Positions 48,841 to 55,623 of a DNA stretch of 64,000 nt are shown one piece after another (within the stretch, counting starts at the first letter, position 1; each line of letters begins with the position of its first letter). The stretch comes from Micrococcaceae bacterium (GTDB lineage: Bacteria > Actinomycetota > Actinomycetes > Actinomycetales > Micrococcaceae): the NCBI GenBank assembly GCA_047606545.1, contig JASGEI010000014.1:18043-82042 (forward strand), given 5' to 3'. A program made the translations under genes and the position numbers. The notes beneath the pieces were generated by a model. That model had not been told where the DNA came from. It saw only the letters and a program-made list of their open reading frames with translations, and did no database searches.

Positions 48841-49665
48841 CTACTTCACCTTCTTGCAATTCTTGGAGAAATAACCATCAGCTATACTATTACCATTATC
48901 TAAATCCCAAGTATAGGGTTTTGTTTCAGATACTTTACCTTTTAAGGTTGTTTTCTTGCCATTACTACTAGTGCATTTGAAAGTGTATTCAACACCTAAC
49001 TTATTCTCTTTATACCATTCGTTGTCTGTAGGCAATTGCTTATTTGTAATAGTTCCATACATATTTTTCCAAGCATCTGTACCAGTTCGCTTATTATTTT
49101 TTGGAAAAGACATAACAAGAGTTTCTGCCGATTTAGAATAGTCTCCATTAAAATAAACAGCATATCTAACTTTGCCTCCAATTAACTCTGCTAATTGTAC
49201 ATCTATATCTTCCGGCTTTACTTTTTTAGTAAACTGATAATTTTCTTGTGTTAAAGGAGCAGCTTTAGGGTCACGCCATTTTTTAACATCTTTAGCCCAT
49301 TGCTCCCAACCACCTTTATTAGAGTAATCAGCATGCCAAGTTTTAACATATTCAGCGGAGTAATTATCTCTACCTTCTCTATACTTTATTAACCCTTTAG
49401 CTCCTGGGTCTCCACCTTCTTCTGATTCAGGATTAGGCTCATTGGGAACTGTCTTAACTGGAGCAGACGTTTCAGTATCAGCAACTACTGTGGTAGTGGG
49501 ATTAGCAGAAGCACTAGGAGTTTTATCTCCAGTAAAATCATCTATTTTAGCGTGCTTAAAGTCAGGCTTCATAAAACTATAAATTGCAATACCTAGAATA
49601 ACCAACACACTAGCAATAATAGCTAGAGTTTTCTTAAAACTTGAATGTTCTTTATTTTCACGCAT
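48841..49665 (-). CDS. Membrane-anchored extracytoplasmic protein, unknown function (gene 6 of the zinc-ribbon operon)
   Basis: N-terminal signal-anchor TLAIIASVLVILGIAIYSF, then a P/T/E-rich linker and a roughly 190-aa domain with no recognised motif. Confidence 0.6.
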   Translation of the reverse strand: MRENKEHSSFKKTLAIIASVLVILGIAIYSFMKPDFKHAKIDDFTGDKTPSASANPTTTVVADTETSAPVKTVPNEPNPESEEGGDPGAKGLIKYREGRDNYSAEYVKTWHADYSNKGGWEQWAKDVKKWRDPKAAPLTQENYQFTKKVKPEDIDVQLAELIGGKVRYAVYFNGDYSKSAETLVMSFPKNNKRTGTDAWKNMYGTITNKQLPTDNEWYKENKLGVEYTFKCTSSNGKKTTLKGKVSETKPYTWDLDNGNSIADGYFSKNCKKVK

Positions 49666-49705
49666 AAATCAAGCAGCTATCTTTCATTACAGAAAACCTA
49701 CACGA

Positions 49706-50836
49706 CTACTTAGTTATTTTTATAGTTTTAGCTATTTCTACAAATTGTTTATATAAATCACTATTTACTTGATTAGCAGCAGTTTGTTTTGCGGAATCTT
49801 CACTCTTTAGAGAGCTAGAACCATTACTTGTAGCTTCAAAAGTCATTTTTCCAATACTTGTACGCACAAATCCCGCACTATTAGTAAAATCACTAGTACA
49901 GTATTCGCCCCCATTACCCATTGCATGATCCGTGATAACCATTTCTGTACCCCAATCATCTTGCCCAAAAGGTTCTTCAAAGTAACGCACTAATGCTCTT
50001 GGCGATAAATCAGGAGTACCAGCAGTATTATTTAACGGACTATTTCTTGGATTTCCAAAATTATCTAAAGTCTGGAAATCTGCAGTACCATAAGGTTTCT
50101 TTGTCCCCATGTCACACTTAGTATCTAAATCAAAAGTGTCATTTACTGCATTTGCATCTGGCTCAAGTTTTAATTCATATTTTGCACTTGCAGCGGAATC
50201 TGGTGAGTTCAAAAAGGCAAGATCATCAGGAGTGTTTACCATTAAGTACGTTCCTTTTGGAACAGTTACAGTATACCCACTAGAAGACGTGTAAGTTCCA
50301 CCACCTTCATATACATTACTAGAACCCGAGACCTTTTTGAGCAAGCCATTCGTAGCTGCGATATCATCTGTCGAACTTTTTTCAGTAGAAGTTGGTGTCG
50401 ATGTTGGTGTCGCCGTAGAACTTGAAGTTGGAGTAGCTGATGTAGTAGGTTCAGAAGATGCCTTATCTTTACTCTTAAAGTAAGATACACCAAAATAACC
50501 ACCAATGCCAATAGCTAAAGCTACAGCTACTGCACCGATACCGTAAGTAACATTTTTGTTTATACTAATACTTTTTTTAGTTTTAACGCTTTCAGAAAAT
50601 TGACTCTCCTCATTTTTAGCAGAGTTCTTATCTACAGTATTTAAAGTTTCATTTTCAGTTTTTTCAGGAAACTTACCTTCAGAATTAACAGAAGAATCTT
50701 TTTCGTCCACTAATGGAATATCTTCCGTCTCAGCTTCTTCATGACTGTTAGAAATATTTTCTACAGGCGTGCCACACTCGCTACAGAACTGTTCATCGTT
50801 CTTAAGTTTATTTCCACATTCACCACAGAATTTCAT
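49706..50836 (-). CDS. Zinc-ribbon / single-pass membrane protein with extracytoplasmic domain (gene 5)
   Basis: CGECGNKLKNDEQFCSECG at residues 4-22, TM VTYGIGAVAVALAIGIGGYFGV, S/T/P linker, about 220-aa C-terminal domain. Confidence 0.7.
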   Translation of the reverse strand: MKFCGECGNKLKNDEQFCSECGTPVENISNSHEEAETEDIPLVDEKDSSVNSEGKFPEKTENETLNTVDKNSAKNEESQFSESVKTKKSISINKNVTYGIGAVAVALAIGIGGYFGVSYFKSKDKASSEPTTSATPTSSSTATPTSTPTSTEKSSTDDIAATNGLLKKVSGSSNVYEGGGTYTSSSGYTVTVPKGTYLMVNTPDDLAFLNSPDSAASAKYELKLEPDANAVNDTFDLDTKCDMGTKKPYGTADFQTLDNFGNPRNSPLNNTAGTPDLSPRALVRYFEEPFGQDDWGTEMVITDHAMGNGGEYCTSDFTNSAGFVRTSIGKMTFEATSNGSSSLKSEDSAKQTAANQVNSDLYKQFVEIAKTIKITK

Positions 50837-50851
50837 AACTTATAACTCCTT

Positions 50852-52864
50852 TTACTTACCTACTGGAACTAACATGTATGGAGCATTATCATCTTTAGAA
50901 AACACCCAAACTTTGTCATTGTTGTTAGCAGGTAATAATGGGTGTTTTTGCCCTAATGATTCCATTTTGTTATTTGCAATATCAAATTTCACGGCTTCCC
51001 CATTGTGCCCAGTACCATAAGCAATACCGTTGTTATCAATGACCTTGAATGTAACACCATCAGTCGGAGAAGTAATCTTATGTCCAGGTGCTTGGTATCC
51101 TTTTTCAGTCTTAATCAGAACATATTTACCATCAGGAGAAGTTATCAAGTCAAGATTTTCATCTGTATTCGAATCCTCGCTGCTTGAACTCTCTGAATCT
51201 AAACTAGCTGTTGCTCTAACACTACTGGATATCTTTACTGGACTATCTATCTTTTCTGGATTCATTTTTTCGTAAGGGACTTCAGCACCAGTTTTAGCAT
51301 CATAAATCTTTTCTGCAGTGGGACTGAAACAGTAATCTCCAAGAATTCCTACACAAAGAGGCAACTGTTTCACGTCTGCATCAACAGAACTTGAATCATC
51401 AAAGTACTTATCGCCCTCTTTCGACCATAGGATTTTATTATTAGTGTTATCCCAAACTCCAGAACTATAGAAGGCGGTTTCTCCATACATAGAACTATAG
51501 AAGGCGGTTTCTCCATACATAGAACTATATGACTCACTGTAAGGACTAGTCATAGCTATAAACGGCGTGTAGTTGCTATTACTAGAAGGGCCGAGTGTAA
51601 TAAAATCATCACTACTACTTGAAGAATTCATTGAGTCAAAAACCTCTTGTGCTTTATCCGGCATCTTTGCTTTTACTTGGGCAATGATTTTATTTTCAAG
51701 AGGTTTAGTAAGCTGATCATCAATTTTCTTTGTCTTAGCTTCTTGAGTAGTTATCTCACCAGTTTCTGGATTAAAAATATTTGTCGAAGTATAGTCTGCT
51801 GAAGCAGTTTTATTCGGCTCAATATTTTCTTTGCCTTCTTGATGTTCAAAAAAACTTAAATACTGATCTTTGGTTTCGCCAGTAGCACTAGTCGCAGTAG
51901 CAGCTTTTTGACTTTCATAGTGGATTTGTAATCCCTTTTTTCCATTCACATCAAAGACGTTATATTCAGGAAAACTTCCTTTATCACTTTCAGGATTTCT
52001 AGTACGATCTGAAATTGGTTTAGCAACCCACTTTGTTTTACCATTAGTGGAGTCAATAGCCGTAATATCGGTAACAGTATCCATATAGTTACTATCATCG
52101 GAAGATGAACTAGTCGAACTACTCTGGGTACCATATTTCTGCTTAATAATAAAAGTAGTATCACCAACAGAAGCAATTTTAACTGTACTCCCTGTATCCT
52201 CAGTACTAGGTTGAATTAAAATACATTTTTTCTTGTTTGTAATATCTTTCAGTGGACCATCTGCAGTTGTATCACTGGGAGTATAGTTAGGATTTTTTTC
52301 AGGATTTGCATAATCATCAACATCACATTTTTTTGCTACTTCATCTGGCCTAGATGCAAATAAATCAGTCGATGCAGCATAAGCTCCGAAGCCACCCGCT
52401 AATAAAGCAACAGCTGCTCCACCAGCAATGAATAGCTTCTTTTTATCTTTTGAAGAACTGTGTTGTAACTTTTCAGAAAGAATTTTTATTTTACTAGTTT
52501 TATTGTTTTCTTTTTTAACAGCTGTGTCAGAATCCTTTGATTTTTTAGCATCAACTTTTTCTACTTTTACAGTCTTTACATTCTCGCCAGTTTTGCCTTC
52601 AGCAATACTTTTTTCTTCAGACGTACTACTATCTACTTTTTCTGGCTTTTTATCGATATCTTTGTCAGAACTTAAATCATTATCATTTACAGGTTTCTTA
52701 GCATTATTTGAGAGAGCAGTTTTACTAACCTTTTTGTTATTATCTTTTGATTTTTTCTGTTTTTTATTTTCCTTGACCGTTGTATTTTCTACTTTAGTTC
52801 CACAATTTGGACAAAACTTAGCTTCTGGTTTTAATTTATTGTTACAGTTCTCGCAGGTACTCAC
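50852..52864 (-). CDS. Zinc-ribbon / single-pass membrane protein with large PQQ/BamB-like beta-propeller-type ectodomain (gene 4)
   Basis: CENCNNKLKPEAKFCPNCG at the N-terminus, about 130-aa K/D/S-rich linker, TM LFIAGGAAVALLAGGFGAYAA. The ectodomain has AIDSTNGKTKW and NNKILWSKE repeat signatures. Confidence 0.7.
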   Translation of the reverse strand: MSTCENCNNKLKPEAKFCPNCGTKVENTTVKENKKQKKSKDNNKKVSKTALSNNAKKPVNDNDLSSDKDIDKKPEKVDSSTSEEKSIAEGKTGENVKTVKVEKVDAKKSKDSDTAVKKENNKTSKIKILSEKLQHSSSKDKKKLFIAGGAAVALLAGGFGAYAASTDLFASRPDEVAKKCDVDDYANPEKNPNYTPSDTTADGPLKDITNKKKCILIQPSTEDTGSTVKIASVGDTTFIIKQKYGTQSSSTSSSSDDSNYMDTVTDITAIDSTNGKTKWVAKPISDRTRNPESDKGSFPEYNVFDVNGKKGLQIHYESQKAATATSATGETKDQYLSFFEHQEGKENIEPNKTASADYTSTNIFNPETGEITTQEAKTKKIDDQLTKPLENKIIAQVKAKMPDKAQEVFDSMNSSSSSDDFITLGPSSNSNYTPFIAMTSPYSESYSSMYGETAFYSSMYGETAFYSSGVWDNTNNKILWSKEGDKYFDDSSSVDADVKQLPLCVGILGDYCFSPTAEKIYDAKTGAEVPYEKMNPEKIDSPVKISSSVRATASLDSESSSSEDSNTDENLDLITSPDGKYVLIKTEKGYQAPGHKITSPTDGVTFKVIDNNGIAYGTGHNGEAVKFDIANNKMESLGQKHPLLPANNNDKVWVFSKDDNAPYMLVPVGK
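51461..51530 (-). repeat. In-frame 30-bp tandem repeat, 2.3 copies, inside the 670-aa gene
   Basis: agaactatagaaggcggtttctccatacat occurs twice exactly, plus a partial third copy. It encodes MYGETAFYSS twice. Confidence 0.9.
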
Positions 52865-52886
52865 AATTAGTATTCCTTATATCAAA

Positions 52887-53294
52887 TTATTTTTTATTAA
52901 AGACTTTTTCGACATCAAGAGCTTTATAGTTTTTAAGCATTTCTTGTAATTTTGGGCTAATTGTACTGCTTGGAATTGCAGCATTTTGTTTCTCAACATA
53001 AGCAGTTATCTCATGTTGAAAAGTACTGGCTTTCGTAGAAAACTCTTTCTTAAATTTTGTAGTAAGTTCAGTCAAGCTTTCTTTATATTTCTGTATATCT
53101 AAAGTTTTAGCTTCGGAAGCGACTGCTTCCACTTTTGGTGTAGTCGTAATTGTTTTAGCTTGTTTATAATCACTAGTTGCGTCGATAACAGTATTATTGT
53201 TATTAGCTATCTCAGCAACCTCTACTTTAGTGCCACATTTTGTACAGAATTTAACTCGGCTTACATCATTGCCACAGTTCATACAAAAATTCAT
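52887..53294 (-). CDS. Small cytoplasmic zinc-ribbon protein (gene 3)
   Basis: CMNCGNDVSRVKFCTKCG at residues 4-21. The remainder is predicted helical and has no TM. Confidence 0.6.
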   Translation of the reverse strand: MNFCMNCGNDVSRVKFCTKCGTKVEVAEIANNNNTVIDATSDYKQAKTITTTPKVEAVASEAKTLDIQKYKESLTELTTKFKKEFSTKASTFQHEITAYVEKQNAAIPSSTISPKLQEMLKNYKALDVEKVFNKK

Positions 53295-53749
53295 TATGAA
53301 TTTTCCTTCACAGAGCCTTTTTCGGAACTATTAGTATCTTTATTAACAGATTTTTCTAATTCCTGATCCATTTCGTGCACATTTGTCTTATCTTTAAGCC
53401 CAAGTTGGTCCTCTAAAAGAAACTGGGTATATTGAGAATTTCTTACTGTAGCTACTTTGCTATCAAGCCAAATTCGAGTACCAAGAAGTTCTAAAACGCT
53501 CAAGTATATTGAAAAGACAAGCCAAAGAAGCACATTTAATGTAGTATTCGTGGCATCATGAGAGCTGCTACTGCTTCCCAAAAGACCAAAGCCACTCGCA
53601 ACAGCATTTAGCAAACTACTAAGATAATAAACAATATATGCACCACCGAGAATCTGTAACGCACAGACTCCTGGGAATACTTTAAAAAACAATTTCGCTA
53701 AGTTTGTTGTGTCATATCGGTCATAATCTGCATTAAATATACTTAACAT
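53294..53749 (-). CDS. Small 2-TM membrane protein, DUF4282-like (gene 2)
   Basis: Two hydrophobic segments and a charged tail. Its stop overlaps the next start. Family resemblance is tentative. Confidence 0.5.
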   Translation of the reverse strand: MLSIFNADYDRYDTTNLAKLFFKVFPGVCALQILGGAYIVYYLSSLLNAVASGFGLLGSSSSSHDATNTTLNVLLWLVFSIYLSVLELLGTRIWLDSKVATVRNSQYTQFLLEDQLGLKDKTNVHEMDQELEKSVNKDTNSSEKGSVKENS

Positions 53750-53757
53750 TATTTTCC

Positions 53758-54198
53758 TTAGTGAGAGAATGCGGCAAAGATACGGCCAAGAATAAGAGCA
53801 AATAGAATGATATCTACCGAAGAAATAATTAAACCTGTTATAGCAAAACCTCTAGGTTTACGGAATAGTCCAATGATAGAAAGAACCCACCCCAGGAAAT
53901 AACAAACCGGCCCTAACAACGGAATCCAACCAAAAAATAAACCAACTAAAGCTAAGATAAAACCGAAGAAGCCTACAGTATTTTTTTGTTTTACTTCAAT
54001 TTGATTTTGAACCACTACGTGAGTTACTCCGTTAGGAGTGTTAGCAACTTGCTGATCATAAAGAGGGCCATTAATATTGCTATTTGTTTTATGATTAACA
54101 TTGGCATTAATAACTTGATTACCAACAGCTGTACCGCAATTTACACAAAACTTTGCACCCAGTTTTAAATTCGCGTTACAATTTATACAATTATCCAT
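53758..54198 (-). CDS. Zinc-ribbon protein with C-terminal DUF4190-like 2-TM domain (gene 1)
   Basis: CINCNANLKLGAKFCVNCG at residues 4-22. C-terminal GFILALVGLFFGWIPLLG...LSIIGL...GLIISS. Confidence 0.65.
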   Translation of the reverse strand: MDNCINCNANLKLGAKFCVNCGTAVGNQVINANVNHKTNSNINGPLYDQQVANTPNGVTHVVVQNQIEVKQKNTVGFFGFILALVGLFFGWIPLLGPVCYFLGWVLSIIGLFRKPRGFAITGLIISSVDIILFALILGRIFAAFSH

Positions 54199-54255
54199 TT
54201 TGAACTTTCGTTGATTTTATTTATTCGTCATTTTTAAATGAAAAGCAGTATATAT

Positions 54256-54286
54256 ACTATACCCCCCCCCTTACCAGGGAAATCAA
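54256..54286 (-). promoter_or_regulatory. Candidate sigma-70-type promoter of the zinc-ribbon operon with a G9 tract in the spacer
   Basis: Minus strand: TTGATT (54286-54281), 19-nt spacer tccctggtaaGGGGGGGGG, TATAGT (54261-54256). The -10 lies 58 nt upstream of the ATG at 54198. Confidence 0.45.
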
Positions 54287-54456
54287 GCGAGGGTCTAGGC
54301 TATCATGATAAGAAATTTAATTTATACTTCAATCTTAGACATACATTATGCGACCACTATAGAAGAGAAACCATACCCCACTCCCCTTGACTTGATTTTT
54401 AGGCTAGTACCTAGCTGCAGTACCACTCATATACTTAATAGAACAGACTTATATAT

Positions 54457-54485
54457 TTGACTATCTTAAAATGCTCTAATAGTAT
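54457..54485 (+). promoter_or_regulatory. Candidate promoter of the divergent 54549 gene
   Basis: TTGACT, 17 nt, TAGTAT, about 64 nt upstream of the ATG. Confidence 0.45.
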
Positions 54486-54548
54486 TCAACTTTGATATGA
54501 TTATCGTATTATTTCTTTGTATTAATTAACTTTATTGTGTGAGGCAAA

Positions 54549-55616
54549 ATGAAAAAAAATATTAGAGTAGTAGCTTTATACCCTAAAGGACTACAAACTG
54601 GTGGCCCTGAAGCCTTTCATCAACTTGTTTCACAATTAAATACAGAAGGGGTTAGCGCATATTTAGCTGCTATCCCAGAAACTGAAAAAGAAACCCCTGT
54701 AAAACAATATGCAATCTATAACTGCCCAGAAATCAAATTTTCAGAAATAGAAGATACTGATATCATAATCTCACCCGAGTCTCGGAATTATATAAACTAC
54801 TTATTGGATATGAAAAATGAACATAAGTTTATTTGGTGGGTCAGTGTTAATTACTCTCCAACTTTCCCAAAATTACAAGTTGTAGATTCAATTCCGGTAT
54901 TATTGCGTTCAAATTTGAATCCTTTAAATCCAAAAGGTAAAGGTAATATATTAAGCATTGGCATGAAAGTTCTGAGGTGGCGTGCTAAAGATCCTAAAAA
55001 GTATCAAAACAAAATAAAAGAACATCCAGAAATAATGCACTTAATACAAACTGAATATTCACGTAATTGGGTTAAGAAGTGTTTCAATACTGAGGGTATC
55101 CCACTTATAGACTACAAGAATATGGTAGGGATAGATTCTAATGCTAATAAAAATAAAATGCAGATTGCTTATAGTGCCACTAAAGACCAGGGATTAGTCG
55201 AAAAACTCTTCCGAACCCTACCTGAATTTAATTTTATTGGCATTAAGGATATGAGTTATAAACAAGTCCAAAACACACTTAAAGAAAGTCAATATTTCTT
55301 AGACTTCGGACCACAACCAGGAAATGATGGTTTACCTCGTGAAGCTGCTCTTAACCAATGCCTAGTTGTTTTAGCAAACCGAGGCGCTGTAGCAGATAAC
55401 GATATTGATTTTCCAATAAATAATATTTGTAAAATTCCTTATGATAAAAATATTATTGCAAATACTACTAAACTGTTTAAAGATATAGCAGCTGATAAAA
55501 GTTATTACGAAAAGCTTTATACCTCACAAGCAACTTATCGAAATAAAGTTCAAAATGAAAAAGAAATTTTTAAAGAGCAAGTTAAATATCTAACTACAGT
55601 TTTCAATCAGCTCTAG
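54549..55616 (+). CDS. Hypothetical protein, possibly a divergent GT-B-fold glycosyltransferase
   Basis: N-terminal RVVALYPKGLQTGGPEAF and a C-terminal G..GLPREAA.. segment loosely resemble GT4 motifs. Very AT-rich. Weak call. Confidence 0.35.
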   Translation: MKKNIRVVALYPKGLQTGGPEAFHQLVSQLNTEGVSAYLAAIPETEKETPVKQYAIYNCPEIKFSEIEDTDIIISPESRNYINYLLDMKNEHKFIWWVSVNYSPTFPKLQVVDSIPVLLRSNLNPLNPKGKGNILSIGMKVLRWRAKDPKKYQNKIKEHPEIMHLIQTEYSRNWVKKCFNTEGIPLIDYKNMVGIDSNANKNKMQIAYSATKDQGLVEKLFRTLPEFNFIGIKDMSYKQVQNTLKESQYFLDFGPQPGNDGLPREAALNQCLVVLANRGAVADNDIDFPINNICKIPYDKNIIANTTKLFKDIAADKSYYEKLYTSQATYRNKVQNEKEIFKEQVKYLTTVFNQL

Positions 55617-55623
55617 TAAAACA

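Follow-up and report, generated by a model that had tools for sequence, protein, structure and literature searches.

Promoters whose output is switched by a homopolymer in the spacer are textbook knowledge for Neisseria and Bordetella. In the fim2 and fim3 promoters of Bordetella pertussis, which carry a C-stretch, and in the poly-G promoters of tpr and tp0126 of Treponema pallidum, the homopolymer lies just upstream of the -10 element and sets the spacing to an upstream element, by which transcription of paralogous surface-protein genes is controlled. The opc gene reportedly has a poly-C promoter, in work ascribed to Sarkari et al. in 1994. [quoted passage not shown]

In Actinomycetota such switches are only beginning to be described, i.e. 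in Gardnerella, in Cutibacterium (Propionibacterium) acnes and for homopolymers of M. tuberculosis. Gardnerella genomes contain a median of ~20 G/C tracts with a mean length of 10, ~70% of which lie in putative promoter regions, including upstream of surface proteins and of an ascorbate-type PTS gene (bioRxiv 10.1101/2023.01.13.523976). [quoted passage not shown] The tract that we describe here is probably a random expression switch of the kind known from pathogens, because it is one of ~19 such runs in a small AT-rich genome.

The G9 tract and the zinc-ribbon operon

The window, i.e. the whole 64-kb stretch of DNA analysed, lies in contig C14 of a source genome (G000) of 1.47 Mb in 22 contigs, with 38.5% GC and 95% completeness; two further species of the same genus (G001 and G002, 1.5-1.6 Mb) were used for comparison. 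At 2 kb from the tract is the gene for ClpC, a protein that shares 98% identity with ClpC of an entry named 'MAG: Micrococcaceae bacterium' and ~72% with Arthrobacter ClpC; these identities point to the source being an uncultured, genome-reduced and unusually AT-rich member of the Micrococcaceae. The reduced size and base composition of the genome are only suggestive of host association of the lineage.

A C9 run on the + strand at 54262-54270 is read as G9 on the minus strand, where the order is TTGATT (54286-54281), tccctggtaa, GGGGGGGGG and TATAGT (54261-54256), the -35 and -10 labels used for these hexamers being consensus motif calls and not mapped elements (Table 1). The 10 nt and the G9 run together form a 19-nt spacer (54280-54262), the tract is 64-72 nt upstream of the ATG at 54198, which starts the first gene of the operon, and TATAGT is about 57-58 nt from the same ATG; in position, spacer length and distance to the operon our measurements agree with the first-pass annotation. 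That annotation had also noticed no other long G/C homopolymer in the window, and indeed there is no other run of at least 7, the runner-up being C6 at 1186-1191. With an iid expectation of 0.056 for a run of at least 9 in a 64-kb window of such composition, the G9 tract is real and far beyond chance. A generic promoter scan of the tract region returned 6 sites versus 4.3 in shuffled sequences, i.e. no excess; its spacer rule is 16-18 nt and the TTGATT-19-TATAGT site is thus unlisted. No Rfam family was found in the tract region.

Table 1. Features at and around the G9 tract, in window coordinates
Feature	Position	Strand	Remarks
Six-gene operon, small membrane proteins	48841..54198	-	Co-directional ORFs with gaps of 1-40 nt; unit under the predicted promoter
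Predicted 5' UTR, ~51 nt	54199..54249	-	Start placed by inference at ~54249, 7 nt after the -10
Predicted -10 hexamer TATAGT	54256..54261	-	Directly 3' of the tract; the Gn-TAnnnT junction recurs in the class
G9 homopolymer	54262..54270	-	3' part of the putative promoter spacer, abutting the -10; one of 19 genome runs of 9-12
Predicted -35 hexamer TTGATT	54281..54286	-	10 nt 5' of the tract; total spacer 19 nt
Promoter-like site TTGACT-17-TAGTAT	54457..54485	+	Predicted to serve the divergent 355-aa gene; without homopolymer

Four of the six operon proteins have an N-terminal zinc ribbon (matches to Pfam Zn_Ribbon_1/DZR), including a match to the zinc-ribbon family over residues 4-24 of the 146-aa product of the first ORF, for which an exact-protein look-up returned no other public copy. 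Most of the operon, the tract and the neighbouring 355-aa gene fall within a segment (49267-55623) that is absent from sister species L001, the alignment to which picks up again inside the last operon gene. In G001 there was no match to 53294-55616, and in G002 only the 355-aa gene was matched, at another locus beside a GT4 gene. Since the island is species-specific, no orthologue of the G9 tract was found in the genomes searched (sister species L001, G001 and G002). Metagenome contigs likewise gave no match, either in a gapped pattern scan for the tract locus or when scanned with a poly-G promoter that is present in multiple copies in the source genome.

It had been proposed that the tract region also feeds the divergent gene, which encodes 355 aa (54549-55616, + strand). 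This gene has a promoter-like site of its own, which precedes its ATG by 64 nt and is separated from the tract by ~190 nt, and the tract is therefore not placed in its promoter; what the tract and this gene share is the intergenic region. The 355-aa protein, otherwise an orphan, has an 82% identical orthologue in G002 (locus L142, C33), where the divergent neighbour is a GT4-like glycosyltransferase gene and not a zinc-ribbon operon, and the window island is therefore composite.

A class of poly-G tracts in three species

The distribution of G/C runs in the source genome is bimodal: there are 214 runs of 5 nt, 20 of 6 nt and 3 of 7 nt, runs of 8 nt are lacking, and a further 19 runs have 9-12 nt (mean 10.1). 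The iid expectation is 98 runs of length 6, 19 of length 7, 3.7 of length 8 and 0.87 of length 9 or more, such that runs of 6-8 are at least 5-fold depleted and those of at least 9 are enriched >20-fold. Such an over-representation of long repeats (19 tracts of 9-12 versus 0.87 expected) is as would be looked for in a contingency set. Intergenic DNA holds 17-18 of these 19 runs, even though ~89% of the genome is coding. The sister species G001 and G002 have 11 and 31 runs of at least 8, respectively, and the 15 larger Micrococcaceae genomes that were searched have 0-3 G9TA sites each.

When 60 tracts from the three species were oriented with G on top, 35 were found to be followed immediately by TAnnnT. 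After single-linkage clustering of similar flanks, the Gn-TAnnnT junction is present in 17 of the 39 independent clusters, compared with an intergenic background of 3.6% (binomial P = 6e-15). In 24 of 33 such promoters the tract is preceded, at a distance of 7-9 nt (most often 8 nt), by a TTGnnn hexamer, e.g. TTGACT, TTGATT, TTGTTT or TTGTAA. In the source genome the tracts are 37-68 nt before a start codon, with G always on the sense strand of the downstream gene. The layout of the class (TTGnnn, N7-10, G9-16, TAnnnT) reads as that of a housekeeping-sigma promoter with its spacer partly filled with G.

By motif, the order TTGnnn-Gn-TAnnnT seen at the window tract recurs at 30 other tracts in the three species. 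The window site itself, TTGATT-N10-G9-TATAGT, has a homopolymer of at least 8 nt between its -35 and -10 motifs; its TTGATT is shared with four G002 poly-G promoters (L097, L098, L100 and L114), where the hexamer is 8-9 nt before the tract. Within the class it differs in that its gap to the -35 is N10, compared with a mode of N8, and in that its length, G9, is the lowest of the range seen in the source genome (9-12). The earlier view that the tract abuts the -10 within a promoter spacer thus gains strong backing, at the level of motifs and of a putative promoter, from a genus-wide class with the same layout.

The same junction bears on the possibility that the real promoter lies elsewhere, e.g. 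at TTGAAG-16-TATCAT (54332-54305), in which case the tract would be in the 5' leader and would act on mRNA stability, on translation or on nothing. TTGAAG-16-TATCAT is a 9/12 consensus match, albeit one no better than those in shuffled sequences, and one tract of the source genome (C19:71454) is in a leader-like position, i.e. the class is not uniform. If the tract were merely transcribed, however, neither the Gn-TAnnnT junction nor the fixed TTG offset would be explained, and the operon leader is without structure (no significant fold, z-score 0.66). We regard a leader location as quite improbable.

The tract at C19:71454-71462, a G9 run, follows closely on a TATAGT and is separated by only 6 nt from the ATG of a Tat-signal protein of 167 aa, i.e. 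it is at a leader or Shine-Dalgarno-like position rather than in a spacer. If its length changed, the initiation of translation or the length of the leader would be affected, as a second mode in the same genome. A T/G-rich element of ~40 nt (TTTTTGGGTGGGTTGTTTTTTGTGTTTGTTG) precedes three G runs in the source genome, at C10:72-111, C19:89942-89981 and C17:50762-50801, which are followed by G10, G9 and G7, respectively; the G7 copy is 140 nt upstream of nrdR.

Downstream of the tracts in the source genome are ten Tat-signal (SRRxVxKGALW) RCC1-repeat propeller genes and two operons led by a PTS EIIA gene (PF00359), as well as the zinc-ribbon operon of the window. These Tat-RCC1, PTS EIIA and Zn-ribbon genes have the surface, secreted or uptake functions, and the membership of multigene families, that are looked for in a contingency set. 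Four of the seven RCC1-like ORFs from a repeat-motif count have no upstream poly-G, and in all four the 5' part is truncated by the end of a contig. In all three genomes many poly-G promoters lie <500 nt from contig ends (7 of 19 in the source genome). With tracts near contig ends and RCC1-like ORFs cut there, the true numbers of poly-G promoters and RCC1 paralogues are therefore probably higher than those assembled.

The proximity of several tracts to contig ends (<500 nt), together with the metagenomic assembly of the source genome, might suggest that the homopolymer is a sequencing or assembly artefact, arising from poly-G read-through in two-colour chemistry or from a mis-join. The window tract, however, is internal to an 88-kb contig, between unique sequence and intact genes, the architecture recurs at motif-defined positions in three independently assembled genomes, and collapsed paralogue families explain the tracts at contig ends. 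An artefact is scarcely credible and is excluded in practice.

Exact look-ups of both PTS EIIA proteins of the source genome (C18:67371-67817 and C20:62675-63094) gave no match. Their nearest named homologues are in Firmicutes (Enterococcus, 54% identity), which suggests that the PTS operons are horizontally acquired sugar-uptake operons that were later fitted with the lineage's own poly-G promoter. The nearest database homologues of the two proteins, only 54-63% identical, follow PRD regulators and have no poly-G, and were set aside as relatives of the promoter. An intergenic element of ~65-85 nt (L148:439-523; G000 C18:67138-67222) separates the upstream gene from a PTS poly-G promoter; its matches at no fewer than 6 places in G002, on both strands, suggest that the genus has a family of palindromic REP-like repeats.

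One genome of another family in the same order (G023) has 54 G runs of at least 8, but it is GC-rich and its tracts do not adjoin -10 motifs; we consider it a different phenomenon. This is a complete genome of 1.83 Mb with ~61% GC in the sampled regions (loci L122-L141), and a repeat ending in CATGATCCTCCT-G11 is present there in at least 5 copies, four of which continue with TAATTCG and none of which has the -10-adjacent layout.

Tract length, repair and the state of the predicted promoter

Paralogous promoters with 95-100% identical downstream flanks (85-200 nt) differ in tract length in six of eight pairs, with lengths taken from short-read MAG consensus sequences that may be off by 1. In the source genome, a G10 tract at C10:112 contrasts with G9 at C19:89982; among the promoters of G002, members of the TAGTATGGG family have G9, G10 and G11, with flanks 99-100% identical, and those of the TAGGAT family G9, G10, G11 and G11. 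Differences of 1 G also separate orthologues in which both flanks are alignable, i.e. G12 at C20:63163 versus G11 at L095 of G002, and G12 at C18:208342 versus G13 at L117 of G002. The long runs have remained free of interruptions in all three species, even with 15-25% divergence in the adjoining non-coding DNA.

The source genome encodes NucS (142.8 bits) and a search of it for MutS domain V found none. NucS-type repair is unable to correct short indels (PMC8228993), and for this reason slippage products in runs of G9-G12 should persist.

These observations have to be weighed against the main rival reading, which is that at the window locus the G run does not switch but is a fixed part of the promoter, be it a structural spacer, an extended -10-like G block or the leftover of a module spread by recombination, with neutral drift in length. 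The short length of the window tract relative to the 9-12 of the genome is in keeping with such an element, as is the frequent breaking of homology between paralogous promoters at the tract, which is expected of module exchange by recombination. However, runs of 9-16 G have been kept uninterrupted in three species despite the divergence of their flanks while runs of 6-8 are depleted, a contrast that points to selection acting on long, mutable tracts; moreover, a G9 run cannot be length-stable where indels go unrepaired. The length differences between near-identical paralogues argue against a fixed element for the class, though not for the window tract, and in porA changes of 1 nt in the spacer alter expression.

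Spacer statistics give the fixed-element reading some further ground, in that total spacers in the class are most often 19-20 nt long and not 17-18 nt. The total spacers of the poly-G promoters range from 13 to 23, with 16 of 30 at the mode of 19-20, and longer tracts are not offset by shorter gaps to the -35 (Spearman -0.09, P=0.65), an offset that would have indicated a selected total spacer. On balance we judge a fixed, non-switching element to be unlikely.

Whether the present 19-nt spacer is a low or OFF state, as was initially proposed, is a separate question. Among ordinary TTGA[CT]N-Nx-TAnnnT pairs without poly-G in oriented upstream regions of the source genome, x = 17 is commonest (18) and x = 19 rarest (4), against a background of ~9, which gives the proposal modest support; the 17-nt peak is itself modest and appears only when the search is restricted to oriented upstream regions, there being no such peak in the genome-wide and all-intergenic spacer histograms. 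Against it, 19-20 nt is the modal length in the poly-G class, and 19 nt may therefore equally be a working length. This mode could mean that, in the consensus population, a low state prevails among the poly-G promoters, or else that the optimum for G-rich spacers is at a greater length. That G9 is sub-maximal at the window tract might well be so, with the balance leaning slightly the other way.

Notwithstanding the fixed-element alternative, we consider it likely, from the motifs and their recurrence, that the G9 run is the 3' part of the spacer of the zinc-ribbon operon promoter, that this promoter belongs to a genus-wide contingency set, and that slippage changes transcription of the operon. 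We infer, that is, that the motifs are the real promoter, that the window tract itself varies and that its length sets expression. According to this proposal, a promoter of the housekeeping-sigma type with G9 in its -35/-10 spacer would drive the six-gene operon of zinc-ribbon membrane proteins. The long G run would slip during replication and, with NucS-only mismatch repair leaving indels in place, variants of +1 or -1 G would arise at high frequency. Each change in length would shift both the distance and the rotational phase between the -35 and -10 boxes, by which transcription of the operon would be raised or lowered. The outcome would be a heritable yet reversible dimmer, or on/off switch, in a subpopulation, with the present 19-nt spacer tentatively a sub-maximal state.

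In comparisons of poly-G promoters, the tract is often the exact point at which homology begins or ends. At L095 (C14:497-507), the PTS promoter of G002 is a mosaic of two PTS promoters of the source genome, in which the upstream half, the RBS and the coding start match C20:63163 and the -10 and early leader match C18:67294. The tracts may thus also be recombination joints. A more far-reaching version of the switch proposal, which we hold to be doubtful, is that the whole variable exoproteome (the Tat-RCC1 proteins and the Zn-ribbon operon) and two sugar-uptake operons are run from one portable module, TTGnnn-N8-Gn-TAnnnT, in which the G tract would be both a slippage switch and a recombination joint swapping promoter halves between loci.

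Relation to described promoter switches

The G9 promoter at the zinc-ribbon operon is probably a further case of an already known mechanism, as represented by porA and by the Gardnerella poly-G tracts; the set of ~20 stereotyped poly-G promoters to which it belongs suggests, from its motifs, that this Micrococcaceae lineage built such a set independently. Given that Actinobacteria are without indel-correcting mismatch repair, poly-G tracts may offer small actinobacterial genomes a cheap and general means of making their populations heterogeneous. To annotators, the tracts flag RCC1 propellers, Zn-ribbon membrane proteins and PTS operons as likely host- or partner-interface genes.

With porA and opc the locus shares a G/C homopolymer of ~9-13 nt in the -35/-10 spacer, here a predicted one, of a sigma-70-type promoter of an envelope-protein gene. 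In those genes length changes by slippage give graded expression, as they would at the locus here under the switch proposal. It differs from porA in phylum and in the gene concerned, and in that its tract abuts the -10, while that of porA is embedded in the spacer; in addition, the total spacer here is 19 nt and the organism is one in which MutS was not found (i.e. without MutSL). The homopolymers of Bordetella set the spacing to an activator (BvgA) site, whereas no activator is known for the poly-G class described here.

The resemblance to C. acnes lies in the rearrangement-site tracts, with homology breakpoints coinciding with tracts here also. C. acnes, however, is GC-rich, and its tracts are shorter (e.g. 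C5 versus C7), vary by clade and are without the recurrent TTGnnn-N8-Gn-TAnnnT module.

Gardnerella is similar in several respects. Its genome, like that of our source organism, is a small, low-GC, host-type genome of the Actinomycetota, for which the corresponding figures here are 19 tracts with a mean length of 10.1, of which 17-18 are intergenic; here too, tracts precede secreted or membrane proteins and PTS EIIA operons. The lineages and gene families are nevertheless different, being Bifidobacteriaceae with Rib/FIVAR/LPXTG proteins in the case of Gardnerella and Micrococcaceae with Tat-RCC1 propellers and Zn-ribbon proteins in the present one, and the length variants that are documented between colony types in Gardnerella have their counterpart here in comparative evidence between paralogues and between species.
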